A stretch of DNA of 45,470 nt from Candidatus Methylomirabilales bacterium (GCA_046758505.1 JBHIAH010000016.1:1-45470); one strand, 5' to 3'; numbered from the stretch's first letter, positions 964-43,285 are shown. The notes: generated by a model not told the origin, from the letters alone. Translations and numbers: made by a program.

Positions 964-1665
964 CTACGGAGTATCCACCGTGGAGGCCTCCGCCGAGAGG
1001 CGATCCACGAGGGTGCGGATCGCGGTAGCCTCTGATGGGTTGAGGTCGAGGAAACATACTCCCATCCCGGTGATGGCAGGCGGGTCCGTCTCCTGACCGG
1101 ACACCCATGCGACCTGCCCGCGAACCGAGAGAGGATCGGACAGGCCCGGGAGCGTGAAGTGGAGTGCGAGCTCTGTCCCGGCCGCCGCTGGGCGGTCGGT
1201 CACGATAAACATCCCCCCCTCACTCAGGTTGAGACACGTCCCATGCGCCGTCGTCCCCGCCTGCCTGTATTCGACGTCGATTTGAACGGGGGTCCGGGTA
1301 TGGACCCGCCTTTTGGGCTGAGAGACCCATTGCCGGACCAGGGACGGGTCGACCGACTCCTCGAAGGCGACTCCGTGTGGAAACCTGGTCCCCAGGCCGG
1401 TCGGCGTCCCGTCGCCAACCGAAACAACGTGGCCGCGCAGCGGATTACTCCCATTGACCTCGAGCGATACCGGCGTCTCGACCGGCAGGGCCTCGGGCAG
1501 CAGGATCTCGAGTCCACCGGCGTTCACGTTCCGAGTCACCCCGTCAAGGAGCTGCGGCTGCGCCTGCTCCGGACTCAGGACGGTGCACTGGACGGGCAGG
1601 TAGCGGGCAAATCGGAGGTGGCGGCGGTAGTGGAGAGTCGGTGTTTTTGGGTCGGCAGCCATCAT
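964..1665 (-). CDS. Tandem PilZ-domain protein (c-di-GMP receptor)
   Basis: Two RxxxR plus (D/N)xSxxG-type motif sets: RRHLR/NVNAGG and RRVHTR/NLSEGG. CCGGAGG RBS. Confidence 0.9.
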   Translation of the reverse strand: MMAADPKTPTLHYRRHLRFARYLPVQCTVLSPEQAQPQLLDGVTRNVNAGGLEILLPEALPVETPVSLEVNGSNPLRGHVVSVGDGTPTGLGTRFPHGVAFEESVDPSLVRQWVSQPKRRVHTRTPVQIDVEYRQAGTTAHGTCLNLSEGGMFIVTDRPAAAGTELALHFTLPGLSDPLSVRGQVAWVSGQETDPPAITGMGVCFLDLNPSEATAIRTLVDRLSAEASTVDTP

Positions 1666-1899: not shown

Positions 1900-2490
1900 C
1901 TACCGGGAGGCCACGACGAAGTGACCCCGGCGGTTCCATTTCCAGGTGGACTCGTCGTGTCCAAGGAGAAAGGGCCGCTCCTCCCCATAGCTGATCGTCG
2001 AGATCCGCTTGATATCAATGCCGCCGGCGACCAGGTAGTCCCGGACCGCCCTGGCCCGCTGTTCCCCCAGCGCAAGGTTGTACTCGTTCGCCCCGCGCTC
2101 ATCGCAGTGGCCCTCGATCACGATACGAATTCGGGGATTGGCCTTGAGCCACCGGATGTTGCCGTTCAGGGTTCTCTTTGCAGCCTCGGTGAGGACGGCC
2201 TTGTCGAAGTCGAAGAAGACATCCTTTAAGGGAGACGCCTTTGTGAGCGCCCCCCCCGGGCCGGTTCTCGGCCGTGCTCCGGGCCCAGGCGTCACCGGGA
2301 TCTCCCGGATCGGTGTCGGCTGGCCGATTTTCTCCTCGACCACTTTCCCTTCCGGCTGCGGTGCCCCCCCCGGGCCCGTCGCCCCCGGCTTTCCCGCCTG
2401 CCCTCCCGGCTTTTTCGGGCAGCCGACCAGGATCAGTGATGTCCCCAAGAGGATGGCTGCAGCCCTCAGATGGACACACCGGTGCTTCAT
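1900..2490 (-). CDS. pal: Peptidoglycan-associated lipoprotein Pal (OmpA C-like domain)
   Basis: Lipobox LVGC; FFDFD, EGHCDERG, YNLALGEQRA, ISYGEERP and NRR motifs. Confidence 0.92.
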   Translation of the reverse strand: MKHRCVHLRAAAILLGTSLILVGCPKKPGGQAGKPGATGPGGAPQPEGKVVEEKIGQPTPIREIPVTPGPGARPRTGPGGALTKASPLKDVFFDFDKAVLTEAAKRTLNGNIRWLKANPRIRIVIEGHCDERGANEYNLALGEQRARAVRDYLVAGGIDIKRISTISYGEERPFLLGHDESTWKWNRRGHFVVASR

Positions 2491-2677
2491 GGGATTTCCC
2501 CCCCCTTCCCGTCAACCCACGGGTCCGTGATTTAGCGACCCCTTCCGCCACTATCTCGCTTTCGACGTACGAGTCAAGTCAATTTTCCCTGCGGCGGGTG
2601 GCGTTGTTTTTCTCTATCTCCATCCATTGCCATGCCTCCGTTGCTCTAATTCGAGGGGGCCTCGCATAACTCATCGC

Positions 2678-2706
2678 TTGACTTCTTCGAGGGCCTCTTC
2701 TATACT
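2678..2706 (+). promoter_or_regulatory. Near-consensus sigma-70 promoter of glpX-hisS-aspS
   Basis: TTGACT-17 nt-TATACT. Confidence 0.8.
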
Positions 2707-2764
2707 TTTTCCCCGCTTTAACTGCAGAAGGAATCACGCTTTTACGGCGCTCGGGAGGTTCTGG

Positions 2765-3721
2765 ATGGAGCGGAATCTGGCCCTCGAGGTGGTTCGGGTG
2801 GCTGAAGCCGCCGCGCTCTCGTCCGCACGATGGATGGGGCGGGGTAATGACGCGCTGGCGGAGCAGACCGCCCTGGATGCCATGCGCCGGGCCATTGATA
2901 CGGTAAATTTCTCTGGAACCGTGGTGATCGGGCGGGGAGAGAAAGGGGAGACCTCCACCCTGTATGTGGGTGAGCAGGTCGGTTCCGGCTCCGGGCCCGA
3001 ACTGGATGTGGCGGTGGAACCGCTCGAAGGGCCGTCCATCGTGGCCGAGGGGCGGGCGAACGCGGTCGCCGCGGTCGCCCTGGCGGAGAAGGGGTGTCTC
3101 TTTCCTGCCCCGGACGTGTACATGGAGAAGATCGCGGTCGGGCCCAGGGCGCTGGGGGCCATTGAAATCACCGCCGGGCCGGAGGCGAACCTCCGCTCCA
3201 TCGCGGAGACGATGAAGTGTTACGTGGAAGATCTCACCGTGGTCATCCTCGACCGACCCCGTCACGGTGAGCTCATCCGGGCGGTCCGCGAGTTGGGGGC
3301 GCGGATCAAGCTGATTCAGGATGGCGACCTCTCGGCGGCCATTGCCGCCGCGCTCGAGGGTTCGGGTGTGGATGTCCTCATGGGGATCGGGCGGGCACCG
3401 GAAGGGGTCCTGGCGGCGGCGGCCCTGAGATGCCTGGGTGGCGACATGCAGGCCCAATTTCGACCGGCGAATGTGGATGATGTCGAGCGTATCCGTCGGA
3501 CCGGCCTGAAGGAGATCGACCGCGTCCTCACCATTACTGATCTCGCCCGGGGGGGAGGGGTCACGTTCACCGCGACCGGCGTCACCGATGGCGATTTCCT
3601 GAAAGGGGTCCGGTTTTTCGGCGGTGGAGCAAAGACCCACTCCCTGGTGATGCGTTTCAGGTCGGGAACGGTCCGGTTCATCGAGGCCATCCACCGCTTT
3701 GACCGTAATCCCATCTATTAA
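2765..3721 (+). CDS. glpX: Class II fructose-1,6-bisphosphatase (GlpX) homologue with a degenerate active site
   Basis: MERNLALEVVRVAEAAAL start after GGAGG; PDVYM, DRPRH, DGD, APEG and TGVTDG motifs retained; catalytic motifs altered (see findings). Confidence 0.92.
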   Translation: MERNLALEVVRVAEAAALSSARWMGRGNDALAEQTALDAMRRAIDTVNFSGTVVIGRGEKGETSTLYVGEQVGSGSGPELDVAVEPLEGPSIVAEGRANAVAAVALAEKGCLFPAPDVYMEKIAVGPRALGAIEITAGPEANLRSIAETMKCYVEDLTVVILDRPRHGELIRAVRELGARIKLIQDGDLSAAIAAALEGSGVDVLMGIGRAPEGVLAAAALRCLGGDMQAQFRPANVDDVERIRRTGLKEIDRVLTITDLARGGGVTFTATGVTDGDFLKGVRFFGGGAKTHSLVMRFRSGTVRFIEAIHRFDRNPIY

Positions 3722-15786: not shown

Positions 15787-16611
15787 GTGATGCCAGGCTG
15801 GCCGGGGTGGCCCCGACGAGTCGGGGCATGGGACGGCGGCGCGGGGGACCGGCGGACCTGGTCGGGGGTGAATGGTGAGAAAGCGGGAACGACCGTGCAT
15901 CAACGCGTAGACCATGCCGCAACCCGCCAACACCCCCGGTTCCCGCTTCGGATGCCGGTCCTCTGCGAGAGCCCGGCGATCCCCGGCTACCGGGCCCTCG
16001 GCCTCACGTGGAATGTGAGCCGGGGTGGGCTGCTGCTCGAGGTCCCGCAGCCGCTGTCCCCGGGCACTCCCGCGGATCTCCTGTTGCTTACCTGGAGCCA
16101 GAACGCCCGGGCCGAGGCGGCGGCGGTCTGGGCTGCTGAGAGTCCCCCCTCCCGGATGGGTCTGCGGTTCACGAAGCTGACCGGGACCGACCGCGTCGCC
16201 TGGGAGCGGCTCCTGGCTTTCCAGGCGGGCCCGACGCCGCGAACGTCGATCCGCATTCCGATCGCCCTGGAGGTCACCTGCCGGATCCCCCCGGGTACGT
16301 GGCTGCCGGGTCAGGCTGAGAATCTCAGTGACGGCGGCTTGCTGCTCGTCCTCCCCCGGGTTATCGCCGGGCGGACGCGGGTCACGGTGCGGGTTCCGCC
16401 GTTGCTCGCGTTCCCCTCGGTGGAGGCGGAGATGGATGTGGTGTGGACCCGGAGCGCTCCCAGGGGGCACGGCGTGCTCCACGGCCTCCGCTTCTGCTGG
16501 GACGACATCAGCAAGGAGCTCTTCCTCATTGGCGTTCTCCTTCGGCAGTTCGTCGACTCGGATGCCACGACACCGGGCAGGAAAGGGGAAGGTGCCCATC
16601 CGGTGGTCTAG
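15787..16611 (+). CDS. Tandem PilZ-domain protein
   Basis: RQHPR/NVSRGG and RTSIR/NLSDGG motif sets; true start probably downstream of 15787. Confidence 0.85.
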   Translation: MMPGWPGWPRRVGAWDGGAGDRRTWSGVNGEKAGTTVHQRVDHAATRQHPRFPLRMPVLCESPAIPGYRALGLTWNVSRGGLLLEVPQPLSPGTPADLLLLTWSQNARAEAAAVWAAESPPSRMGLRFTKLTGTDRVAWERLLAFQAGPTPRTSIRIPIALEVTCRIPPGTWLPGQAENLSDGGLLLVLPRVIAGRTRVTVRVPPLLAFPSVEAEMDVVWTRSAPRGHGVLHGLRFCWDDISKELFLIGVLLRQFVDSDATTPGRKGEGAHPVV

Positions 16612-29693: not shown

Positions 29694-30137
29694 ATGCTGT
29701 ACTTCGCGTATGGCGCCAATATGGAGAGGTTCTGGTTCAAGAAGCGTTGCCCGGGGGCGAAGTTCGTCTCGACGGCCGCGCTTCGGGACTACGACATTAC
29801 CTTTGTCGGACGTTCCCCGATGTGGGGTAGCGGGACGGCTGATCTGAAGCCTACGCCAGGGGGCGTCGTGGAGGGCGTCCTCTGGGAGGTCGGCGAGCAG
29901 GACCTGAAAGCCCTGGACCGGTATGAGGGGGTCCCCAAGGACTATATCCGGAAGACAGTGACGGTGGAGTCCAAGGGGAAGAACAGCGTACAGGCGTCCG
30001 TTTATTTCGTGGCCCAACCTGGGAGCTATCGGCCGCCTTCGAGGCGCTATATGCGCCTCCTCCTCCAGGGTGCCGAAGAGCACGGTCTTTCGGATGAGTA
30101 TGTCATGCGGCTCGAAGCAATCAAGACGTCTGGTTGA
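29694..30137 (+). CDS. Gamma-glutamylcyclotransferase (AIG2-like) family protein
   Basis: YFAYGAN, VEGVLW, LDRYEG (catalytic Glu), PSRRY and GAEEHGL. Confidence 0.88.
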   Translation: MLYFAYGANMERFWFKKRCPGAKFVSTAALRDYDITFVGRSPMWGSGTADLKPTPGGVVEGVLWEVGEQDLKALDRYEGVPKDYIRKTVTVESKGKNSVQASVYFVAQPGSYRPPSRRYMRLLLQGAEEHGLSDEYVMRLEAIKTSG

Positions 30138-30368: not shown

Positions 30369-31808
30369 GCATACGAGGCGGTGATCGGGCTGGAGGTCCA
30401 TGCCCAACTGTTCACCGAATCGAAGATCTTCTGCGGGTGTAGCACCCGGTTCGGGGAAGCACCCAACTCGCAGACCTGCCCCGTCTGTCTGGGCATGCCG
30501 GGGGTCTTGCCGGTTCTCAATCAGAAGGTGGTGGAGTACGCGATTCGGACTGCACTCGCGGTTCACGGCACAATCGCCCCCCACTGCCGCTTCGCCCGGA
30601 AGAACTATTTTTACCCCGATCTGCCCAAGGCCTATCAAATCTCGCAGTACGAACTCCCCCTGGCCACTGGTGGCTTTGTGGAGATCAGTGACCATGGGGG
30701 GGGCAGACGGGTCAGGATCCGGCGGGTCCATCTGGAGGAGGACGCGGGAAAGCTTCTCCACGCCGGAACCATGGACCAGGCGGACTACAGCCTGGTCGAT
30801 TTCAACCGGTGTGGAGTACCGTTGATCGAGATGGTGACGGAACCGGATCTGCGCACGCCGGAGGACGCGGCGGAATTTCTGAAACTGTTCCGGACGACCC
30901 TTCAGTATCTCGGCGTCTCCCAAGGGAACATGGAAGAGGGGAATCTTCGCTGCGACGCCAATGTCTCGGTCCGTCCGGTGGGGACCTCGGACTTCGGGGT
31001 CAAGACCGAGGTCAAGAACATGAACTCCTTCAGGAACGTCCAGCGGGCGTTGGAGCATGAGATCCAGCGGCAGATCGCGCTGCTGCAATCCGGTCAGCCG
31101 ATCGTCCAGGAAACACGCCTCTGGGATGCCGAGCAGGGGGTCACCCTCCCCATGCGGGGGAAAGAGGAGGCCCACGACTATCGCTATTTCCCCGAACCGG
31201 ATTTGGTCCCGCTGGAGGTTTCTCCTGCCTGGGTTGAAGAGATTGCCGGGGCTCTCCCAGAGCTTCCCGCGGAGCGGCGGCAGCGCTTCGTGCAGGCGTA
31301 TGGGCTGCCGGAGTATGATGCGGCCGTGCTCACCGCCAGCAAAGCCCTGGCCGAGTATTTTGAAGAATGTACCCAGCTTCACCGGGACACCAAGATGGTG
31401 AGCAACTGGGTCATGTCCGAGCTCTTGGGATATCTCAATCGGGAGGGGAAACAGATCACCGAAAGTCCCGTCACGCCAGCCCAATTAGCCGCATTGCTGA
31501 AGCTGATCCAAGAGGGGGTCATCAGCGGAAAGATCGCCAAGACGGTCTTCGAGGAGATGTGTCGGACCGGAAAGGACCCTGAAAAGATCGTCCAAGAGAA
31601 GGGGCTGGTTCAGATTTCCGACCGGGAAGAGCTCGGTCGGATCGTGGATCAGGTGCTGGCCCAGAATCCCGGCCCCGTCTCCGACTTCAGGGGGGGAAAA
31701 GAAAAGGCCCTGACGGCACTGGTCGGAGCGGTCATGCGTGTGACCAAAGGGAAGGCCAATCCGCAACTCATCAACGATCTGCTTCGAGAGAGGCTCGCGG
31801 GGGAGTAA
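30333..31808 (+). CDS. gatB: Asp/Glu-tRNA amidotransferase subunit B
   Basis: [35 protein letters not shown] and [10 protein letters not shown]. Confidence 0.98.
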
Positions 31809-31911
31809 CCACCCTCAGGGGAGACGTGCAAAGGGTTCTGGCAGTCTTAAGCGCCGCCGATGCTGTCGGGCACCGGCATTGGCGTTGCCCTGAGAAATAG
31901 AGGAACATACG

Positions 31912-32961
31912 ATGCGCATTGCCTTGATTACCCCTGCCTATTACCCCTCTGTCCGCGGCAACGCAATCACGGTGCAGCGGATCGCGTCGGGGCTCCGGGA
32001 GCACGGGCATCAGCTAGAAATCTACTCGCTGGAGGCGTATCAGGACCGGCGGGAAATCCCCGCGGCCATCCGAGCCTTTGGCCCCGATCTCCTCCACGGC
32101 TTTCACGCCTTCGTGACCGGGGACCTTGTCGTGTCGGAGGGGAGGCAGGCCGGTGTCCCGGCCTTGGTGACCATCACCGGTACAGATGTCAACATCGATC
32201 TGTTTCACCCCAAGCGGCGCGGGAGCGTGGTAGAGATCCTGAAGCGGATGCAGGGCGTTGTGGCGTTTCACCAGAGCATTCGTGACAAGCTCGTCGCGGA
32301 GGTCCCTGAGCTGGATGGGAAGATCCGAGTCATCCGGCAGACCGTTACCTGCGAGGAGAGGTCCGGCGATTATCGGGCCCAATGGGGGTTCGGTCCTCGC
32401 CATATCCTCTTCTTCTTTGCGGCCGGGATCCGGAAGGTCAAGAATCTCCCCTTCTCGTTCCCCGCCCTCGTGCGCCTTCACGCTCGCCACCCGGAGCTTC
32501 GTGTCCTCTATGCGGGCCCCATTTTGGAAGAAGAGGAGGGAAGGCACTTTCTCAGTCTCCTTGCCGGTAACGCATGGGCCCGTTATCTCGGTGAGGTTCC
32601 CCATGAAGAAATCTGCGGCATGCTGCAGGAGGTGGACGTGGTGGTGAACTCCTCCCTGTCAGAGGGGGGGATGTCCAATGCCCTCCTCGAGGCCATGAGC
32701 CGCGGCGTGGTGGTCCTCGCCTCGGATATCGAGGGGAACCGATCCATCATCGTAAACGAAGTGGATGGTCTCCTCTTCACCGCGGAAGAGGACTTTGAAC
32801 GGAAGGCGGAACGGCTGATTCTCGATTCCGACCTGCGTCACCGCCTGGGCGGTAAGGCAAAAGCCAAGATCGAAAAAGAGTACTCCGGGGTGCAGGAGAT
32901 TGAGGCCTACGAGGGGTTCTACCGAGACCTGCTCGGGGCGGGGATGACCGGTGACAGGTGA
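31912..32961 (+). CDS. GT-B/GT4 glycosyltransferase, SenB (selenosugar synthase)/GLT1D1-like
   Basis: GNxxTxxR, FHA, TGTD, IRKVK, SEGG...EAM and ASDIEGN motifs. Confidence 0.8.
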   Translation: MRIALITPAYYPSVRGNAITVQRIASGLREHGHQLEIYSLEAYQDRREIPAAIRAFGPDLLHGFHAFVTGDLVVSEGRQAGVPALVTITGTDVNIDLFHPKRRGSVVEILKRMQGVVAFHQSIRDKLVAEVPELDGKIRVIRQTVTCEERSGDYRAQWGFGPRHILFFFAAGIRKVKNLPFSFPALVRLHARHPELRVLYAGPILEEEEGRHFLSLLAGNAWARYLGEVPHEEICGMLQEVDVVVNSSLSEGGMSNALLEAMSRGVVVLASDIEGNRSIIVNEVDGLLFTAEEDFERKAERLILDSDLRHRLGGKAKAKIEKEYSGVQEIEAYEGFYRDLLGAGMTGDR

Positions 32962-33018
32962 CGGGTTTCTGGAAGAAGACTATCCCTTCGGCTGCGGACC
33001 GCGAGCCGGGATGATCCC

Positions 33019-33933
33019 ATGGATATTCGCGCCCTAGAGGTCTTTTGCTGGATCGTGGAGCTGAAAAGCTTCTCCAAGGCGGCCGAGGCGGTCTATCTGA
33101 CCCAACCAACGGTCAGCGGCCACATCAAGGGTCTCGAAGAGTTTGTGGGCCTGAAGCTCCTGGACCGGCTCGGCCGGGAGGTGGTCCCGACGAAGGCGGG
33201 CGAGCTCTTGTATGGGTACGCAAGGCAGGTGCTTGCCCTGAGGAGCCAGGCCATCCAAGCCCTGGAGGAGTACAAGGGGTCCCTGAAAGGACAGCTGGTC
33301 ATTGGTGGCAGTAATATTCCCGGTGAGTACGTCCTGCCGGCGCTGCTGGCCCGGTTCAAAACCCGGTACCCGGATGTTTCCATCTCCCTTAAGATCGCCG
33401 ACTCGCGGCAGGTCGCCCGGGGGGTCCTGGAGGGGGCGTATGAGCTCGGGGCGGTGGGGGCCAAGTTCGACGATGGTCAGTTGGTCTACTTGAAGCTCTG
33501 GGAAGATGAACTTGTTCTCGCCCTGCCGGCCGACCACGCGTGGGCCAACAGGCGTGCCGTTGCCATCGGGGATCTGTCCGGCCAGCCGCTTATCTTGCGG
33601 GAGGTGGGATCCGGTTCGAGAAAGGTCCTCGAGGACGCCCTCCGCGTCGCCGGCATAAGCGCTGGAGCCCTCACGGTGGTAGCAGAGCTGGGGAGCACCG
33701 AGGCAATCCGTCAAGCGCTAAAGAGCGGAGCCGGAATATCCGTGATATCCCTCCGAGCGATCCAGGAGGACCTGGACCGGGGAACGCTCCGCACGGTACC
33801 CCTCGAGGGCGTGAGGCTCACCAGGGACTTCTATCTCATCTATCACAAGAACCGCTCCAGGTCTCCCCTCTCCGAGACGTTCGTCACCTTCCTGCTCCAA
33901 TCGGTAGGAACCGAGCCTCACGTGGGCTCCTAA
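33019..33933 (+). CDS. LysR-family regulator (CysL-like, selenium-metabolism-associated type)
   Basis: HTH SFSKAAEAVYLTQPTVSGHI; GSNIPGEYVLP, REVGSGSR and GSTEAI. Confidence 0.9.
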   Translation: MDIRALEVFCWIVELKSFSKAAEAVYLTQPTVSGHIKGLEEFVGLKLLDRLGREVVPTKAGELLYGYARQVLALRSQAIQALEEYKGSLKGQLVIGGSNIPGEYVLPALLARFKTRYPDVSISLKIADSRQVARGVLEGAYELGAVGAKFDDGQLVYLKLWEDELVLALPADHAWANRRAVAIGDLSGQPLILREVGSGSRKVLEDALRVAGISAGALTVVAELGSTEAIRQALKSGAGISVISLRAIQEDLDRGTLRTVPLEGVRLTRDFYLIYHKNRSRSPLSETFVTFLLQSVGTEPHVGS

Positions 33934-34036
33934 GGCTCGTCACGGATGTCCCCCTCCCTTCTTATGGCCTGACTCTATATCGTAAATCCCGATTAACAAC
34001 ATAGGTATTTCATTGTCGATGTGCCCAAATGTATTG

Positions 34037-34077
34037 CTATTACCAATTTGACTTATTCTAATTAGTAATAGGATAAT
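34037..34077 (+). promoter_or_regulatory. AT-rich promoter with an overlapping palindromic operator
   Basis: CTATTACCAATT-11 nt-AATTAGTAATAG (11/12 complementary) overlapping TTGACT-18 nt-GATAAT. Confidence 0.7.
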
Positions 34078-34138
34078 CCCGTCATTACTTCGTCCGTAGG
34101 GCATTCACTGCGGTTGCGTATAACCGGAGGTCCGGCAG

Positions 34139-35008
34139 ATGTGGGTGGTACGGAAATCGCTGGTGGCAGGGTTTCTGGTCGGGGTGGGGTTGCTTGCGCG
34201 GGCGCACGCCGAGGTGCCGGAGGTCTTGCGGGTCTCGGCCATCCCCGATGAAAACCCCCAGGAGCTCCTGCGCATCTACGAGCCCTTCGCCGCTTATCTA
34301 AGCAAGGAGTTGGGCATGCCGGTAAGGTTTGTTCCCGTCATCGATTACGCGGCGACGGTAGAGGGGCTGGCCGCCAAGCGGCTGGACCTGGTCTGGTACG
34401 GTGGCTTCACCTCGGTCCAGGCGGTGCGCCGGACGGGGGGCCATGCGACCCGCCTCGTGATGCGGAAAGAAGATGCGGCGTTCAAGAGCGTCTTCATCAC
34501 CCGCCGCGATAGCGGCATCACCACGCTGGGCGATCTCAAGGGAAAGACCTTCTCCTTCGGCAGCGTCTCGTCGACCTCGGGTCACCTCATGCCCCGATAT
34601 TTCTTGCTGAGGCACGGGATCAACCCGGACCGGGACTTCGCCCAGAAGCCTGCCTTCAGCGGGGCTCATGATGCGACGGCCCTGTGGGTGGAGGGGGGGA
34701 AGGTGGACGCGGGTGCATTGAACTTCCTGGTCTGGGAAAAGCTCGTCCAGAATCGCAAGGTGGACACCGGCAAGGTGAAGGTCTTTTGGACCACGCCGCC
34801 CTACGTCGACTACGTCTGGACCGCTCGGAGCGAGCTCGACCCCGATCTCCGGGATCGCATCACGGCTGCCTTCTTGCAGCTCGACTACAACAATCCGAAG
34901 GATCGGGCGCTCCTGGATCTCCACCGGACGAAGGGCTACGTTCCCGCCAAGGACGAGGACTGGAAGGGGATCGAGCGGGCTGCCAGGGCCGCGGGTCTCC
35001 TCGAGTAG
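34139..35008 (+). CDS. PhnD-family ABC substrate-binding protein (putative selenate-type clade)
   Basis: Signal peptide; SAIPDE, DLVWYGGFT, SSTSGHLMPR, SGAHDAT and TPPYVDYVW. Confidence 0.88.
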   Translation: MWVVRKSLVAGFLVGVGLLARAHAEVPEVLRVSAIPDENPQELLRIYEPFAAYLSKELGMPVRFVPVIDYAATVEGLAAKRLDLVWYGGFTSVQAVRRTGGHATRLVMRKEDAAFKSVFITRRDSGITTLGDLKGKTFSFGSVSSTSGHLMPRYFLLRHGINPDRDFAQKPAFSGAHDATALWVEGGKVDAGALNFLVWEKLVQNRKVDTGKVKVFWTTPPYVDYVWTARSELDPDLRDRITAAFLQLDYNNPKDRALLDLHRTKGYVPAKDEDWKGIERAARAAGLLE

Positions 35009-35051
35009 TTTCATTCCGGGAGAGGGACGCCGGGAAAGATCACCACGCGCT

Positions 35052-35873
35052 ATGTATCGTTTGGAGCACATTCGCAAAACATTCAACGGCCACCTGGTTG
35101 CGGTCGATGGTGTGTCGTTAAAGGTGGCGCCCGGCGAGCAGGTTGCCATCATCGGCCCGTCGGGCGCGGGGAAGACGACGTTGTTCCGGCTCTTGAACCT
35201 GACCCTGCGGCCGGACGGGGGTCGGCTCTTCTTGGGGGACCTCGACGTGGGCGGACTCACCGGACCCCCCCTGCGGGCGGCCCGACGGCGTATTGGGACG
35301 ATCTATCAACAGCACAACCTGGTACCGCGCCTGTCGGTCGTGCATAACGTGCTGGCCGGCCGGCTCGGCACCTGGTCTGGATGGCAGGCGGTCTGGTCGC
35401 TGTTCCGCCCCCAGGAACTTAACGCCGCCCACGAGGCCCTCACCCAGGTCGGCATTCCCGAAAAGCTCTATGCGAGGACGGATGAGCTCTCCGGCGGGCA
35501 GCAACAGCGGGTGGCGATTGCGCGGGTGCTGGTCCAAAAGCCGGAGGTCATCCTCGCCGACGAGCCAGTCGCCTCGGTAGATCCTGGTTTGGCCCATTCG
35601 ATTGTGAAGCTCCTGGTGCACATCAGCCAGGCCTCCGGGAAGACCCTGCTCATGAACCTGCACAGCGTCGAGCTGGCCCTGACGTATTTCTCGCGGGTCG
35701 TCGGATTTCGGGAAGGACGCGTCCAGTTTGACCGGCCTCCCGTCGAGCTGACCGAAGACCTGTTGGCACGGCTCTACGCCGGAATCACCCCCCCCGATGC
35801 TCCAGAGGTAGGATCGGATCCGCATCATGACTCCCCCCTCACATCCTGCGGCCCCCTCCCTCCGGGAACGTAA
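35052..35873 (+). CDS. PhnC-like ABC ATPase
   Basis: GPSGAGKT, LSGGQQQRVAIAR and ADEPVASVDP. Confidence 0.93.
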   Translation: MYRLEHIRKTFNGHLVAVDGVSLKVAPGEQVAIIGPSGAGKTTLFRLLNLTLRPDGGRLFLGDLDVGGLTGPPLRAARRRIGTIYQQHNLVPRLSVVHNVLAGRLGTWSGWQAVWSLFRPQELNAAHEALTQVGIPEKLYARTDELSGGQQQRVAIARVLVQKPEVILADEPVASVDPGLAHSIVKLLVHISQASGKTLLMNLHSVELALTYFSRVVGFREGRVQFDRPPVELTEDLLARLYAGITPPDAPEVGSDPHHDSPLTSCGPLPPGT

Positions 35874-36696
35874 GCGCGTCCACTCCTGGCTGTTTGTGGC
35901 CGGGCTGGTCGTGGTGTTCCTGGGGAGCGCCCGGGTGGCACAGGTGGATCTGGGCACCCTCCTGGGCCGCGAGGCGCGGGCGAATTTTTTCCGGTTCTTT
36001 GCCGGGGCCTTTCCTCCGGACGTCAGCCCTGCTTTCCTTCGGTTCTTGATCAAGCCGACCCTGGAGACGATTCAGATTTCCATCATCGGCACCGTGATCG
36101 CCGTGTGTATCGGATTCCCTCTCGGCCTGCTGGGGACCGCGACGCTGGCCTACCGCGGTATCCTCCACGACCGGGAAGTGGCCGGCATACCGTCCCGCTG
36201 GGTCGTTCGATTTCTCCCCTATGCCACCGCCCGGGCCCTGCTGAGCCTGTTCCGGAGCATTCCGGAGTTTGTCTGGGCGCTCATGTTCGTGAAGGCAGTG
36301 GGACTGGGTCCCTTCCCCGGAGTCTTGGCGATCGGCTTCGCGTATGGGGGGATGATCGGCAAGGTCTACTCGGAAATCTTGGAGGTCGTGGACCCACAGC
36401 CGATCGAGGCACTCCAGGCGACGGGGGCCGGCCGCTGGCAGATCCTCGCGTACGGCTTCCTCCCGCAGGCCTATCCCAACTTCGTCTCCTACACCCTCTA
36501 CCGCTGGGAGTGTGCCATCCGCGCTTCGGCCGTCCTGGGCCTGGTAGGGGCCGGCGGGCTGGGCCAGCAGATCGAGATCTCCATGCGGATGTTCGATTTT
36601 CACCAGGTCTTCACCCTGGTCGTCATCCTGTTTGCGCTGGTCGCGAGCGTCGACTGGTTGAGCGCGCGCGTCCGGCAGCGTGTGTTCGCGAGGTAG
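35827..36696 (+). CDS. PhnE-like ABC permease 1
   Basis: RSIPEFVWA, GLGPFPG, EALQATGA and LGLVGAGGLG. Confidence 0.93.
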   Translation: MTPPSHPAAPSLRERKRVHSWLFVAGLVVVFLGSARVAQVDLGTLLGREARANFFRFFAGAFPPDVSPAFLRFLIKPTLETIQISIIGTVIAVCIGFPLGLLGTATLAYRGILHDREVAGIPSRWVVRFLPYATARALLSLFRSIPEFVWALMFVKAVGLGPFPGVLAIGFAYGGMIGKVYSEILEVVDPQPIEALQATGAGRWQILAYGFLPQAYPNFVSYTLYRWECAIRASAVLGLVGAGGLGQQIEISMRMFDFHQVFTLVVILFALVASVDWLSARVRQRVFAR

Positions 36697-36703
36697 GTGG
36701 GGC

Positions 36704-37570
36704 ATGGCTCCGGTGCACTTCCCCCCAGCAGACCAGCACCCCGTCGTGGTGACGCCGTCGCGCCGATGGCTTTCGTTGGCGATCGCGGCCGCCGTCGCGA
36801 TGGTTGTCTGGTGGAGCGCCCGGGGAGCCGAGGTCGACCTGATGCTCCTCCTCTGGGAGGGCCCCCGAGCGATCCTGGACTACAGCCTCAGGCTCTTCCC
36901 CCCGGATCTGAGCGGTGGCTTCCTCACGGAAACGGTCATGGGGACACTGGAAACGCTGGCGATCTCCATCATGGGCAGCCTGCTTTCCATGGTGGTGGCG
37001 GCCAGTCTCGTCTTCTTCGCCAGCGCAAATCTGATGTTCGCCGGCGTCCTGTTCGAGCGCGAGGAAACCGGCCGCCTCCGGCGTGGAGTCCGACGTTCGA
37101 TCTTCCTTGCGGCACGAAGCCTCTTGAACCTTCTCCGAACCATCCCGGAGATCGTATGGGCGACGGTCTTCGTGTTCGCGGTGGGGCTTGGCCCCTTCCC
37201 AGGGGTGTTGGCGTTGGGGGTCCACAATGGCGGGGTTCTCGGGAAGCTGTTCGGCGAGGTCTTGGAGAATGTGGACAGGCGTCCCGTCGAGGCCCTGCAG
37301 GCGACCGGAGCCAACCGGTTCCAAATCCTCCTCTATGGGATACTTCCCCAAGCGCTTCCCCAGTTCCTGTCCTACTCGCTCTACCGGTGGGAGGTAAACG
37401 TTAGGGCGGCGGCGATCCTCGGCCTGGTAGGGGCCGGCGGGCTGGGCCAGCAGATCCACATCGCGATCAGCCTCTTCCTCGAGCATCAGCTCCTCACGCT
37501 CCTCCTGGCCATCTATCTCCTCGTGACGCTGGTCGATTATCTCAGCGCGTACCTCCGAAGCCTTCTTTGA
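36704..37570 (+). CDS. PhnE-like ABC permease 2
   Basis: RTIPEIVWA, EALQATGA and LGLVGAGGLG. Confidence 0.93.
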   Translation: MAPVHFPPADQHPVVVTPSRRWLSLAIAAAVAMVVWWSARGAEVDLMLLLWEGPRAILDYSLRLFPPDLSGGFLTETVMGTLETLAISIMGSLLSMVVAASLVFFASANLMFAGVLFEREETGRLRRGVRRSIFLAARSLLNLLRTIPEIVWATVFVFAVGLGPFPGVLALGVHNGGVLGKLFGEVLENVDRRPVEALQATGANRFQILLYGILPQALPQFLSYSLYRWEVNVRAAAILGLVGAGGLGQQIHIAISLFLEHQLLTLLLAIYLLVTLVDYLSAYLRSLL

Positions 37571-37595
37571 TAATCCAGGTAGGCATGGCTGTCCT

Positions 37596-37612
37596 CTGGC
37601 ATACTCTGTGCA
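37596..37612 (+). promoter_or_regulatory. Sigma-54 promoter
   Basis: CTGGCATACTCTGTGCA, GG-N10-GC. Confidence 0.65.
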
Positions 37613-37951
37613 CCCGCTGACCGATGCGGACGGCGACCGGCTGGACGAGAGGGTAGCCGAGGGGTAGGGGGGTGTGCTACCCTATGCCGTCGGCATACCG
37701 AAGCGCGACGGGGACGGAAGCTTCGGCGGCCTCAGGGCTGTCCCTCCCTCCGAACCCTCCGGACGGTCTGTGGGCTCGATCAGTGCAGGGGTGGAAAGGT
37801 GTCCCGCGGGTGTGTCAGCACCAAGGGTCGGGGATCAAATGTCTCGACCATCGGGTGTTGAACGCCGAGCCCGCAGGGGAAGAGGGGTCGGGGAGGACGT
37901 GAACCCGGGCCGCGACTGCCCCCATGAGCGTGGAAGGAGCGGAGAAATCTC

Positions 37952-38740
37952 ATGCCACTGGCACTTCTCGTTGACGCCGATCCAGACAGCGGTGTTCGGC
38001 TTCAAAGGGCCCTGGAAGCCGTGGGCTACGAGGTCGCGGTGGCTCCCAGCGGTACGGATGCCCTTGCGCGGGTAAAGCAGCAGCGTCCGGACCTGATCAT
38101 CAGCCAGGTCATGTTCGAGGACATGTATGGCTCCGAGCTGTGCTCGATGGTCCGGGCGGACCCCACCACCAAAGAAATTATGTTTATCCTCCTGGTCGAT
38201 CGGGGCTCGCAGATGGCACTCGCTGCGAGCCAGACCGAGGCGGACATGATCCTCCCCGAAAACTCACCCCCCTCAACGATCGTGACGCGCGTGGACACGC
38301 ATTTGCGGCTCCGCGGCGTTACAACCGCGTCGCCCCCGCGAGGCAGAGTTCAGGACGCGGCCCGGAAGACGCCAACGGAGGAAGGGGCAGCCACGCTTCA
38401 GGGTTCGTTGGCGGTTATGGACCTGACGGAGGTGACCCAGGCTGTCTCGATCGGCAGGAAGACGGGGCGGCTCATGCTCTCCTTACCGGCCGGCGAGGGG
38501 GTCATCCTGTTTGAGTCTGGTCGGGTTGTGCACGCCGAGTTCGGAGGACAGGCGGGAGAGGGGGCGTTTGGCGCGCTCGTGATGGCTTCACATCGGGAGC
38601 GGGGGGGGACCTTCTCGTTCAATCCCGTCGAGGCTGGGGAAGCATCAAAGCTCTCGAAGAGCATTGACAAGGACTTGGAGACTCTCCTCCTCAATATCGC
38701 CGTAGAGATCGACGAGAGCGAGAAGGGAACGGGGAACTGA
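37952..38740 (+). CDS. Atypical receiver domain plus DUF4388 (PatA-N-like) protein
   Basis: Receiver fold with PDLIISQ; C-terminal LQGSL..DL....Q......KTGRL...G.I.F..G.VVHA pattern. Confidence 0.8.
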   Translation: MPLALLVDADPDSGVRLQRALEAVGYEVAVAPSGTDALARVKQQRPDLIISQVMFEDMYGSELCSMVRADPTTKEIMFILLVDRGSQMALAASQTEADMILPENSPPSTIVTRVDTHLRLRGVTTASPPRGRVQDAARKTPTEEGAATLQGSLAVMDLTEVTQAVSIGRKTGRLMLSLPAGEGVILFESGRVVHAEFGGQAGEGAFGALVMASHRERGGTFSFNPVEAGEASKLSKSIDKDLETLLLNIAVEIDESEKGTGN

Positions 38741-40374: not shown

Positions 40375-41181
40375 TTAGTCTTCCCGCAGAAGGTTCTCGA
40401 CCGCCTGGCGGAAGACCGGGAAGGGATGGGCGCCACTGATCAAGACCCCTTGAATCGTATTGTCCGATCTCGTTTTTCCCAGGAAAAAACCGGGAGTTCC
40501 TCGGATCCCAGCGGCTAACCCCTCCTCGAGGTTCTGTTGGACCTCGGCAGCGTGTGTGCCGTTCTTCAGGCAGGCATCAAAGGCTGTCGAATCCAAATCG
40601 AGCCTGCGCGCATATGCCTTGAGGTGCTCGACTTGCAGGGCCCGCTGATTTTGGAAGAGCAGGTCATGCATGTCCCAGTATCTGCCCTGATCTCCAGCAC
40701 AATGGGCCGCTTCGGCCGCTTTGCGCGCATGCGGGTGAATCCGATCGAGGGGGAAGTCCCGAAAGACGTAGCGGACCTTCCCCGTGTTGATGTATTCCGC
40801 CTTGAGGGCGGGGAGTGTGTCCCGGAAAAACCTCCCGCAGAAGGGACACTGATAATCCGAAAACTCGATCATGGTGATCGGCGCGTCCTTTTTCCCCGCG
40901 GTGGGATGGTCGGAGGTCCTCACCGTGGCCACGACGCGGGACGGTTGGTTTGGCCGGCGGCCGCGCTGTGAGAGGAGTTGCCGAATGAGCGTGAGCTCTT
41001 TTCGAACCACCCTCAGCTCGCTCTTGATTTTTTCAAGGTCAGCCTTGAGGGTTTCCAGCTCCGATGGGGGTGCTGGCTCTGACTGCGCGAAGGCTGTTGC
41101 CACCCCCTGCCGCATGTTGCCGGCCGCAATCATGGCCGGCAACAGAACTGCGATGAAAAAGACCCGGCGTATCGGCTTCAT
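40375..41181 (-). CDS. DsbA/thioredoxin-fold periplasmic oxidoreductase with a coiled-coil N-terminus
   Basis: EFSDYQCPFC, RDFPL, AAHCA and GTP cis-Pro loop. Confidence 0.92.
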   Translation of the reverse strand: MKPIRRVFFIAVLLPAMIAAGNMRQGVATAFAQSEPAPPSELETLKADLEKIKSELRVVRKELTLIRQLLSQRGRRPNQPSRVVATVRTSDHPTAGKKDAPITMIEFSDYQCPFCGRFFRDTLPALKAEYINTGKVRYVFRDFPLDRIHPHARKAAEAAHCAGDQGRYWDMHDLLFQNQRALQVEHLKAYARRLDLDSTAFDACLKNGTHAAEVQQNLEEGLAAGIRGTPGFFLGKTRSDNTIQGVLISGAHPFPVFRQAVENLLRED

Positions 41182-41637
41182 CCACACCCCCTTTCTCGCG
41201 GTTGGCTGCTCGGAGGTCCCGCATGCATGGGGGAACCCGTTACGGTCAAGGCCTTAGCCTGAAGGGAATGGCGACGGATTCGGAGAGGCCGGCGGAAGTC
41301 CAGGGCCGTCCCTCCCAATACATGCTCCATCCGGGCGGAGGACGAAGCGGGGAAGCCTCCCTGTGCAGGGAGCATCCCCACCTCACCGGGCTTCCCCGGA
41401 GGAGCCGGCTCCTTTTCGGTGTGCCGTTGCGTGTCCCGGAGGCGGGCGAGGGGCGCCCGCGGTCCTCTTTCCATTCCTGCCTCCCCTGAGTGGGGGTTCA
41501 GTATGCCCCGATGCCCAACCGGTGTCAAGGGACCCTGCGCTGTCGCTGGTGAACTTCCGTGGGATGATCCATACGCGGATGTCAGGGATGACGCACTGGT
41601 GACGTTTTTGGAGGTGCGCGGAAGCGGGACGCCGCGA

Positions 41638-41654
41638 CTGGCAGCATATTTGCA
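41638..41654 (+). promoter_or_regulatory. Sigma-54 promoter
   Basis: CTGGCAGCATATTTGCA, GG-N10-GC. Confidence 0.8.
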
Positions 41655-41769
41655 TAGAGTCCCACCCGTTCACGGGCAGTCGGCGTGCCGGGAGAAACCC
41701 AAAATCCAAGGCAGGGAGGCCTTCTGTCTCTCCTGCCCATGCCCTTCGGGGGCCAGGCGTGGTCGGGCT

Positions 41770-42141
41770 ATGATGAGGGCACATCGCAAACGAGGTGTGG
41801 ATAGGAACCTCCAGGACCGGAAGCCTCCGCGCTTTCGCATTTCCGGTGTCACAGCGGCCGTTACAACGCTCCAGGAGGCGGAGGTGCTGGATCTGAGCCT
41901 GGAGGGGGCGCTCGTGGAGCACCAAGGCGTGCTCCCATTGGGGAGTCCGTGCTTCCTCCAGCTGGGGACAGGCGGGGAAAGGTTGACCCTCCGGTGTCAA
42001 GTGGTACACAGCCGGGTGAGCCGGAGCGAGGTTGGCGGTGCCCTCTTCTATCAGACGGGGCTGGAATTCCTGGAGCTCTCCCGCCGGGCGGAAGAATCCC
42101 TCGGGGCTTTCATTCGCTCGTACGGGGCTGCTGAGGGGTAG
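41770..42141 (+). CDS. Single PilZ-domain protein
   Basis: RKPPR, DLSLEG and GLEF motifs; start inferred. Confidence 0.82.
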   Translation: MMRAHRKRGVDRNLQDRKPPRFRISGVTAAVTTLQEAEVLDLSLEGALVEHQGVLPLGSPCFLQLGTGGERLTLRCQVVHSRVSRSEVGGALFYQTGLEFLELSRRAEESLGAFIRSYGAAEG

Positions 42142-42211: not shown

Positions 42212-42847
42212 ATGCCGGTTTCCGGCTCTACGGGCGGTGCGCCCACATTAATCCTGGGCCGAACCGGTCTGGTGGATCCGCGTGCAACCGGCACGCATGA
42301 CCGGGGCGTTCTCGTGAGAAGAAAGAGAAAACGGCGGAAAAGGCGGTCAGAACCGCGGGCTGTTCCGCGAGAGGAGACCCCCGTGCGGCTCAGCGCCGAG
42401 CAGGAGGCGTCCCTCTTGGACGGTGAAGTTGCAACCCGGCGGCAATACGCCCGATTCGCCGTGGAGGGAAGAACCAAGGGACGGGTCATTGCCGTCTGCG
42501 ACGCGCTGATCCTCGACATCAGCATTGGGGGTTCTCTGATTGAGCATTCCCACGTGGTCCGGCCAGGTACCATCTCTTCCCTGGACCTTGACCTGCTGGG
42601 GAAGCGGGTGAGCGTCAGGTGCCGCGTGGCCCGTTCGATCGTCCACCGGTCGGAGGTGCAGCCCGATGGAGAGCGGGAGTTAATTTTCCACACCGGGCTC
42701 GAATTTCTCGAAACCTCTGATGAGACGCGCGGCCTGATCGGCGAGTACATTCAATCGATTGTCTGTGACGGGAGGAAACCTCAACAGGTACTTCCCGCGG
42801 CGTCCGATGAGCCCGATGCCCACGGTATCTCTGAGGATGCAAGGTAG
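42212..42847 (+). CDS. Single PilZ-domain protein with a basic N-terminal extension
   Basis: RQYAR, DISIGG and GLEF motifs; paralogue of the upstream PilZ; start uncertain. Confidence 0.85.
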   Translation: MPVSGSTGGAPTLILGRTGLVDPRATGTHDRGVLVRRKRKRRKRRSEPRAVPREETPVRLSAEQEASLLDGEVATRRQYARFAVEGRTKGRVIAVCDALILDISIGGSLIEHSHVVRPGTISSLDLDLLGKRVSVRCRVARSIVHRSEVQPDGERELIFHTGLEFLETSDETRGLIGEYIQSIVCDGRKPQQVLPAASDEPDAHGISEDAR

Positions 42848-43190: not shown

Positions 43191-43285
43191 TGGCGGAGGC
43201 GTGTGGGAATCGAACCCACCGGCCCGCTTTTGGCGGGCCCACCGGTTTTGAAGACCGGGAGAGCCACCAGGCCCAATCCGCCTCC
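43191..43285 (-). tRNA. selC: tRNA-Sec (anticodon UCA)
   Basis: GGAGGCGG-AT-TGGGCC TGGT GGCTCT-C-CCGGT CTTCAAA ACCGG, long variable arm GGCCCGC/GCGGGCC, GTGGG TTCGATT CCCAC, ACGCCTCC-G-CCA; 95 nt, extended acceptor and D stems. Confidence 0.95.

Follow-up and report, generated by a model that had tools for sequence, protein, structure and literature searches.

A candidate Se-glycosyltransferase from a sister family of SenB in a selenium-associated gene module of Methylomirabilota

SenB (TIGR04348), represented by the PDB entries 8jjn, 8fbx and 8rz3 from Variovorax paradoxus and by RsSenB (8k5u), is the selenosugar synthase of the selenoneine and ovoselenol pathways and is described in PMC10891094 as the only known Se-glycosyltransferase. 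Another report states that published sen clusters often include a putative selenate transporter and egtD (bioRxiv 10.1101/2022.04.13.486033). Here, we describe a locus in a window of 45,470 bases from a Candidatus Methylomirabilales bacterium (GCA_046758505.1; the window is the whole of contig C16), in which a glycosyltransferase (GT) resembling SenB is encoded next to a LysR-family regulator and a four-gene importer. The assembly comprises 2.99 Mb in 149 contigs (62.7% G+C, 96.8% complete), and the relatives of the genome are Methylomirabilota (NC10) genomes. We read the window as carrying a module for the acquisition and activation of selenium, of a kind typical for Methylomirabilota. Within it, GT may be a SenB-like, selenophosphate-dependent Se-glycosyltransferase of a distinct family that replaces SenB and completes a split selenoneine pathway in this genome, with the regulator and the importer providing control and uptake; on sequence comparisons, we regard this proposal as the likeliest reading, though evenly poised between being right and being wrong.

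In the open-access literature searched, no paper was found on a SenB-like enzyme outside the sen and ovs clusters or on the sister family to which GT belongs, on selenoneine in connection with Methylomirabilis, or on the meaning or function of the "GPMC system", the label carried by the best-matching family model of GT.

Family placement, residues and fold of the glycosyltransferase

The module consists of six open reading frames (ORFs), all co-oriented on the + strand between positions 31912 and 37570:

31912..32961, + strand: GT, a GT4/GT-B glycosyltransferase of 349 amino acids, in a sister family of SenB (placed by NCBIfam, hhalign, residues, AlphaFold model and synteny)
33019..33933, + strand: selenium-metabolism-associated LysR-family regulator of 304 amino acids (NF040786; Pfam HTH_1 and LysR_substrate)
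34139..35008, + strand: periplasmic substrate-binding protein of the putative selenate type, PhnD/PtxB superfamily (TIGR04553)
35052..35873, + strand: PhnC-like ATPase of an ATP-binding cassette (ABC) transporter (TIGR02315, 265.3 bits, cut-off 266.1; Pfam ABC_tran)
35827..36696, + strand: PhnE-like ABC permease (TIGR01097, 246.3 bits, cut-off 216.7)
36680..37570, + strand: PhnE-like ABC permease, second copy (TIGR01097, 249.8 bits, cut-off 216.7)

GT was recognized by the Pfam family Glycos_transf_1 (PF00534, 73.5 bits, cut-off 26.4). Its best NCBIfam model, aligned end to end, was the GPMC system family 4 glycosyltransferase (NF038229, 330 bits, cut-off 400), and SenB was the second-best family (88.2 bits, E 4.9e-25, cut-off 300), matching over profile positions 1-258 of 310, a span that takes in the acceptor domain. 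Other GT4 families reached at most 60 bits, including the BshA model with 56 bits against a cut-off of 273.7. As both leading scores lie below their cut-offs, GT falls in neither the SenB nor the GPMC family by curated thresholds. When the true SenB proteins of two genomes in the phylum were scanned, they matched the GPMC model at 109 and 81 bits, and an hhalign comparison of 17 GT family members with 14 SenB sequences yielded a probability of 99.4 (E 1.2e-21) over 319 aligned columns.

Phylogenetic placement relied on an 81-row tree from a quick search, with 14 SenB rows and only two usable outgroups; the outgroup OUT_L006 aligned badly (end branch length 10), fell inside the family and was left out of the residue table. 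The 14 SenB rows formed one clade (SH-aLRT 100, branch length 3.56), and GT was placed apart from it, in a 64-row group (support 90) and, inside that, in a clade of 18 rows (support 99) composed of 17 Methylomirabilota rows and one representative. On these profile and tree comparisons, GT is a member of an uncharacterised sister family of SenB and the nearest relative of SenB outside SenB itself. The wider family to which it belongs contained 259 clusters at 50% identity with E <= 1e-30. Among its 150 listed representatives, 77 were scanned; all of them matched the GPMC model at 217-397 bits, none over a cut-off, and 17 also matched SenB at E <= 1e-30.

Twelve functional residues of SenB are given from mutagenesis or structure in PMC10891094, namely the selenophosphate pocket (N20, H58, R61, T83, T85 and R155), the sugar contacts (N20, T23 and E231) and the catalytic K158, with V157, D86 and E239 also listed. 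GT keeps 11 of the 12 listed there (N17, T20, H65, T89, T91, D92, R174, V176, K177, E251 and E260), and the same 11 were invariant across all 17 Methylomirabilota rows. Two generic GT4 proteins from the same genome, by comparison, throughout kept only K158, E231 and E239, plus single N, H and V matches; both were without TGTD, and an Asn at the GN position was present in just one of them. GT is a candidate selenophosphate-dependent Se-glycosyltransferase.

The AlphaFold model of GT (pLDDT 90.1) showed a compact two-Rossmann GT-B fold. Its structure matches included BshA (3mbo, Z 38.0, root-mean-square deviation (rmsd) 2.0 over 332 residues) and MshA (Z 36.1), and SenB was matched with Z 34.1 (rmsd 2.3, 310 of its 320 residues aligned, 22% identity).

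These results bear on a preliminary description of the window, which had reported a co-oriented glycosyltransferase, a LysR gene and a four-gene PhnCDE-like transporter, as borne out by the six ORFs above. The motifs that it had quoted as counterparts of SenB do align with N20/T23 (GNAIT), H58 (FHA), D86 (TGTD), R155/K158 (RKVK) and E231 (SEGG). Its naming of the glycosyltransferase as SenB-like stood with regard to relationship and residues, but did not extend to membership of the SenB family or clade. It had named a position outside that clade as grounds for refutation, and on the question of membership this is what was observed. It had further likened the binding protein to the putative selenate clade and the regulator to the selenium-associated type, and both proteins passed the corresponding models (see below).

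Selenium genes elsewhere in the genome and around related glycosyltransferases

The module had previously been characterized as lacking senA and selD, which was correct for the window but not for the genome. Here, selA (607.5 bits), selB (333.2 bits), selD and senA were all recovered from other contigs, in answer to the search that the preliminary description had proposed. A single selD with a canonical in-frame TGA, hence encoding a selenocysteine (Sec)-containing SelD, was located on contig C6, and contig C19 carried EgtD (368.5 bits), a MetE-like gene and SenA in a row. The C19 protein is a bona fide SenA, passing both NF041186 (539.9 bits, cut-off 420) and the signature TIGR04373 (101.2 bits, cut-off 71); it also just reaches the EgtB cut-off (360.0 bits vs. 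360), so that its substrate is putative. A second SenA-like gene, present as a fragment truncated where the contig begins, was found at C45:3-527 (+); it shares 70% identity with the copy on C19. No canonical SenB over the cut-off was detected in the 96.8% complete genome by profile search, GT being the best SenB-like match.

Two flanking genes of these SenA copies were also inspected. The C45 fragment is followed by a PhsA/ArrA-like molybdopterin oxidoreductase, and the stretch upstream of it, which may have held a senB, lies off the assembly. The gene between egtD and senA on C19 (about 1909-3012, -) resembles cobalamin-independent methionine synthase (Pfam Meth_synt_2) and contains an in-frame TGA at C19:2287-2289 within the motif FGFHL*RGN; when this codon is read as Sec, the Pfam match spans 15-323 of 324. 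The TGA presumably occupies the position of the zinc-binding Cys in family members, and the gene is a candidate selenoprotein methyltransferase within the selenoneine locus.

The earlier suggestion that the product of the module is not selenoneine relied on the absence of senA and is not supported for this genome, given the SenA and EgtD of C19, the Sec-containing SelD and the C45 fragment. A senA elsewhere in the genome had been taken to imply an ordinary split selenoneine pathway. A split pathway is indeed the likelier reading for this genome, since SenA, EgtD and SelD are present and senA directly follows the module in relatives; it would not be an ordinary one, because another family stands where SenB should be.

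Gene order was compared at 80 loci from species-representative genomes, 37 of which were well flanked (at least 6 kb upstream and at least 2 kb downstream). The LysR gene of the selenium type was present at 52 of the 80 GT loci and at 31 of the 37 well-flanked ones; it lay no more than 300 bp downstream of GT at 26/80 loci and upstream of GT at 25/80. SelD was encoded at 24 of the 80 loci and the binding protein at 14. In NC10 genomes, the order was gatB-(AsmA-like)-GT-LysR-[binding protein-PhnC-PhnE-PhnE], and in Rokubacteria it was LysR-SelD-[same transporter]-(ExtKL-like cytochrome or ResA-like oxidoreductase)-GT. The GT-LysR-SelD association thus survives a rearrangement of gene order, which speaks for GT, the regulator and selenium activation being functionally linked; conservation of the association in relatives, which had been named earlier as something to look for, was found in these two different orders. 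The transporter cassette is optional among close relatives (present in L026, L030, L038, L044 and the window; absent from L024, L025, L027 and L029), and locus L021 retains only a PhnE fragment, suggesting recent loss of the cassette. When present, the cassette occupies the slot between LysR and a downstream response regulator. A small ORF of 88-91 amino acids with an H-x3-C-x2-C motif, which we take to be of the zinc-binding anti-sigma type, was seen in two Rokubacteria loci on the opposite strand between selD and GT, directly ahead of GT (L085:9599-9865 (-) and L072:9627-9902 (-)).

A further 80 loci were fetched from metagenomes with a GPMC-like query; 31 of them were nearest to true GPMC enzymes and 49 were of the Methylomirabilota type. 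LysR and/or SelD accompanied GT at 26 of these 49 loci. Selenium linkage as a trait of the whole wider family was rejected, as it occurred at 0/31 GPMC-type loci: the selenium context is a feature of the Methylomirabilota clade rather than of the GT family at large. Linkage to SenA was seen in three cases only. In genome G055, GT-LysR is followed after 3.3 kb by SenA (512 bits)-EgtD; in the metagenome locus L150, the order is GT-LysR-(ArsM-like gene, opposite strand)-transporter-SenA, with SenA (385 bits) cut at the contig end; and in L099, GT is followed by two genes and then by EgtD-SenA (485.6 bits). The ArsM-like methyltransferase of L150 (10547-11173, -), on a Methylomirabilis-type contig, had selenoprotein ArsM fusion families as its best NCBIfam matches and could provide a selenium or arsenic methylation step. 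A candidate SenA relative in L134 (2498-3316, +; tblastn 29% identity), ending 61 bases before a GT-family member, was rejected: it has an FGE-sulfatase domain (Pfam 132.7 bits), the domain type that EgtB and SenA carry C-terminally, and the DinB domain is absent. As an FGE-domain protein without NCBIfam assignment, it was not counted as SenA linkage.

Distribution was surveyed in 151 Methylomirabilota genomes including that of the window; these genomes are related, so that the observations are not independent, and the tallies include four genomes flagged as unpublished (G046, G028, G100 and G057). GT was present in 122 genomes, SelD in 139, SenA over the cut-off in 56 and canonical SenB in two. 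SenA without SenB was observed in 54 genomes, 49 of them with GT; the five without GT are 81-90% complete. In the two SenB genomes (G014 and G104), SenA stands beside a SenB::EgtD fusion, and a genome search found no GT match in either. The fusion is a single reading frame directly after SenA at their loci L101 and L102, with 658 amino acids in L102. In G014 the slot of GT is empty, with only 80 bp separating the AsmA-like gene (E 7e-58 against its counterpart in L033) from the LysR-binding protein-PhnC genes that follow it; in G104, no GT was found in the 1.5 kb upstream of LysR, the only stretch that could be checked. The congener G046, on which the comparison within the genus rests, has GT-LysR-binding protein-PhnC.

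Regulator, importer and other features of the window

The LysR protein passed the selenium-metabolism model NF040786 (LysR_Sec_metab; 311.1 bits, cut-off 250) with residues 1-294 on profile positions 1-296 of 298, and failed the Phn equivalog phn_lysR (180.6 bits). Three orthologues from relatives passed NF040786 at 304-320 bits. Similarly, the binding protein passed TIGR04553 (339.4 bits, cut-off 250) over the complete profile (positions 1-266 of 266) and failed the PhnD model (181 bits, cut-off 261); it scored 232 bits with the general phosphate/phosphite/phosphonate model and 257 bits with Pfam Phosphonate-bd. Both permeases passed PhnE, and the ATPase fell one bit short of PhnC. In the open-access literature searched, no experimental support was found for TIGR04553 transporters or selenium-type LysR regulators, and no paper was found showing a ligand for TIGR04553 members or a selenate ABC transporter with selD.

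Three further features were located, two of them in the 205-bp spacer before the binding-protein gene:

34033..34047, no strand assigned: imperfect T-N11-A-type dyad ATTGCTATTACCAAT, read from the sequence, abutting the -35 hexamer
34048..34077, + strand: promoter-like site preceding the transporter operon, with TTGACT and GATAAT spaced by 18 nt (sigma-70-like match)
43191..43285, - strand: tRNA-Sec, anticodon tca (ARAGORN; Rfam RF01852, 80 bits, gathering threshold 47)

T-N11-A is a mark of LysR sites, and the dyad ATTGCTATTACCAAT is a candidate LysR box. It lies within the sole strongly conserved block of the spacer between LysR and the binding-protein gene (5/5 aligned genomes), where ATTTGACTTATT (34046-34057) is unchanged in 5/5 aligned relatives. 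The promoter-like site was the only sigma-70-like match in 31700-38100 (one found, 0.9 expected by chance). Upstream, GT and LysR are separated by 57 bp, and a terminator-like site was not found in this gap; the two genes may be co-transcribed.

The tRNA-Sec lies 5621 bases past position 37570, in line with the 5.6 kb reported before, and shows that the organism uses selenocysteine; it is context only and does not imply membership of the module. Rfam at gathering thresholds yielded only this tRNA-Sec in the window, with no other known RNA or riboswitch in the spacers. On the 5' side of the module, the window carries the housekeeping genes aspS, phoH, era, glmU, glmS, a ClC channel, pcrA, gatA and gatB, and on the 3' side response regulators, a DsbA/thioredoxin-like lipoprotein and the tRNA-Sec. 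An ORF for an AIG2-like gamma-glutamyl cyclotransferase lies between gatA and gatB (29694-30137, +; Pfam AIG2_2 71 bits, GGACT 57 bits) and is kept at the same position in NC10 loci. The lipoprotein (40375-41187, -), 2 kb from the tRNA-Sec, matched the Rcas_1661 family (seleno)lipoprotein model at 130.7 bits (cut-off 190) and looks like the Cys form rather than the Sec form, because its alignment is near full length. ORFs of the PilZ-domain/TIGR02266 type are dispersed in the window (41419-42141 (+), 42212-42847 (+), 964-1665 (-) and 15787-16611 (+)).

Proposed pathway, rival explanations and comparison with known systems

Under the proposal that GT stands in for SenB, the PhnDCE-like importer, with its binding protein of the putative selenate type, would take up a selenium oxyanion, and LysR would control it through the conserved dyad and promoter at 34033-34077. 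Selenophosphate from the Sec-containing SelD would serve GT together with a UDP-sugar, in a reaction modelled on that of SenB: selenophosphate would attack C1, and the conserved Lys177 would then promote Se-P cleavage to give a 1-seleno-sugar. With EgtD-made hercynine and this selenosugar, the SenA of C19 would form selenoneine, making up a split sen pathway. Family assignments, gene content, synteny, residue conservation and the patterns of co-occurrence or exclusion are observed; the acceptor and product of GT, the ion transported and the regulatory link are putative elements of this scheme.

Several observations weigh against this proposal. GT lies far below the curated SenB cut-off and outside the SenB clade, which sits across a long branch, and the root of the tree and the residue contrast depend on just two usable outgroup proteins. 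The twelfth residue, R61 of the SenB pocket, is Val68 in GT and mostly Ala or Val in the phylum. In the representative set, GPMC-type relatives without a selenium context keep the same pocket residues as GT; the pocket alone is therefore no proof of selenophosphate use, and that of the GT family may recognise a phosphate-like anion in general. Fold was likewise rejected as a discriminator, because both Foldseek and VIA-align gave a generic GT4 ranking in which SenB did no better than BshA, MshA, GlgM and sucrose-phosphate synthase. With regard to gene context, selD and senA sit on contigs other than that of GT in the window genome, GT and SenA share a contig in just 1/49 genomes having both (G055), six of the 37 well-flanked loci are without any selenium-linked gene, and none of the 31 GPMC-type metagenome loci, 10 of which carry 8 kb on both sides, has LysR, SelD, the binding protein or SenA. 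In the survey, 73/151 genomes have GT without SenA, and GT is just modestly more frequent with SenA (49/54) than without it (73/95). Co-occurrence of GT with SelD was discarded as a test, since both are near-universal in the phylum and the comparison has little power to discriminate. As for the importer, the nearest solved chains of the binding protein are phosphorus-oxyanion binders (7s6g, E 1.6e-60; 5lq5; PtxB), and the "selenate" label of TIGR04553 is a context-based NCBIfam prediction (model type hypoth_equivalog).

In one rival explanation, GT would be unrelated to selenium and would glycosylate some other acceptor, either a small anion or an envelope component, as is presumably the case for its relatives in the GPMC system; its adjacency to LysR would then reflect shared regulation or inherited gene order. 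Its best family match is the GPMC-system GT4 rather than SenB, the selenium-free GPMC-type loci encode the same pocket residues, structure searches place BshA, MshA, GlgM and sucrose-phosphate synthase first, and in NC10 it is placed with housekeeping gatB or an AsmA-like envelope gene on one side and LysR on the other; the six well-flanked loci devoid of selenium-linked genes point the same way. We nevertheless judge this explanation unlikely, given that the association with LysR_Sec and SelD is retained even though the two main lineages have their genes in wholly different orders, that the GT slot is vacant exactly where canonical SenB is present, that GPMC partner genes were not found in the window genome and GT scores under the GPMC cut-off, and that the BshA model lies far under its own cut-off. 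Were it correct, it would call for caution, as SenB pocket residues and NCBIfam "selenium" labels would then be insufficient to predict function.

Alternatively, in keeping with the preliminary description, the chemistry may be as proposed and the fate of the selenosugar different, either as an end product or as the feed of another, SenA-independent pathway for storage, redox buffering or detoxification. The constant partners of GT are LysR_Sec and SelD and not SenA, a shared contig with SenA is rare (1/49), the neighbours of GT in Rokubacteria include periplasmic redox (seleno)protein types (ExtKL-like cytochromes and ResA-like oxidoreductases), and the fate of a selenosugar in the 73 genomes with GT and no SenA over the cut-off may be other than selenoneine. 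For the window genome, however, we consider this quite improbable as the explanation: it holds SenA and EgtD with no other candidate source of selenosugar, GT and canonical SenB are mutually exclusive within one genus, and SenA comes immediately after the module in L150 and 3.3 kb further on in G055. The selenosugar and selenoneine fates are also not mutually exclusive.

A module for phosphorus oxyanions, in which the importer takes phosphite, phosphate or phosphonate under a Phn-type LysR and GT acts on a phosphate-type acceptor, seems very improbable to us. Its appeal lies in the permeases that pass PhnE and the ATPase that nearly reaches PhnC, in the scores of the binding protein with the general phosphorus (232 bits) and PhnD (181 bits) models and of LysR with phn_lysR (180.6 bits), and in the picocyanobacterial and Pseudomonas phosphorus-oxyanion binders that are the nearest solved structures of the binding protein. 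Picocyanobacterial PhnD1 is described as a likely phosphate transporter in a paper citing 7S6G (PMC10284923). In opposition, the binding protein passes the narrower TIGR04553 and LysR the selenium model, both fail the Phn equivalogs, and the same transporter stands between selD and GT in Rokubacteria. In addition, no carbon-phosphorus lyase genes were seen in the window, as noted before, and a search of the genome (96.8% complete) gave no PhnJ, with an E. coli control matching; genes for phosphite dehydrogenase and phosphonatase were not searched for.

If the sister family catalyses the SenB reaction, it would represent a second, independently diverged case for how enzymes select selenophosphate, and it would explain how 54 of the 56 SenA-bearing genomes of the sampled phylum could produce selenoneine in the absence of SenB. 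It would also suggest wide selenosugar production in soil, groundwater and methane-oxidising bacteria, many of them without a selenoneine synthase. The module would also offer a testable set of regulator, operator and transporter for bacterial selenium uptake. More tentatively, and with rather more doubt than belief, we suggest that a second, evolutionarily distinct family of selenophosphate-dependent glycosyltransferases may be near-core in Methylomirabilota (NC10 and Rokubacteria) under a selenium-sensing LysR, with free selenosugars as a primary selenium metabolite (carrier, store or redox buffer) and selenoneine as one downstream fate confined to SenA-bearing genomes (56/151); the wider family, including the GPMC enzymes, might act on chalcogeno-phosphate or phosphate-like anions.

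Among described systems, BshA and MshA, the GT4 enzymes of bacillithiol and mycothiol synthesis, are the top structural matches of GT; they are UDP-N-acetylglucosamine (UDP-GlcNAc)-dependent and use small anionic acceptors. GT differs from them in its low score with the BshA model, in an identity of 18-21% and in its acceptor-loop motifs. The binding protein shares the periplasmic binding protein fold family of the PhnD/PtxB type and, by passing TIGR04553, belongs with that clade.

The GPMC system combines the NF038229 glycosyltransferase with a metallo-beta-lactamase (MBL) hydrolase (NF038231), TIGR04442 and a sigma-54 regulator (NF038230). Its composition was read in L104 and L117, where the GT4 gene is divergent from those for a PhnP-like MBL hydrolase, a 614-amino-acid TIGR04442 protein and a 935-amino-acid sigma-54 regulator; the glycosyltransferase of L117 itself was not scored. 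GT shares with the system its best NCBIfam model, the wider family and the conserved pocket residues, but remains under the cut-off of 400 in a distinct clade, whereas the true member in L104 scores 470.1. In the 96.8% complete window genome, TIGR04442 had no match (control genomes gave none either) and the MBL hydrolase model reached 41 bits at best against a cut-off of 360; for the regulator, the best window match was 143 bits against 1200. With GT under the cut-off and the partner genes not found, GPMC membership of GT was rejected.

The closest comparison is with SenB and the sen clusters. GT and SenB have the compact GT-B/GT4 fold in common, are mutually nearest NCBIfam glycosyltransferase families, share the GN..T loop, the His, TGTD, R.VK and EGG...E motifs, and keep similar company (selD, a putative selenate transporter, egtD and sometimes senA). 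GT is unlike SenB in its score (88 bits vs. a cut-off of 300), its separate clade, about 25% identity, the replacement of R61 by Val/Ala and one extra residue between the two Glu of the EX7E-like motif; it is also usually not adjacent to senA and has LysR_Sec as a constant partner. At the level of the pathway, the window genome resembles sen clusters in possessing SenA, EgtD, SelD, a transporter of the putative selenate type and a SenB-like GT, which are contiguous in some relatives. It departs from them in that the genes are spread over at least three contigs, that a single housekeeping Sec-containing SelD is present with no dedicated SenC, and that a different glycosyltransferase family, joined by a LysR_Sec regulator, occurs where SenB would be.

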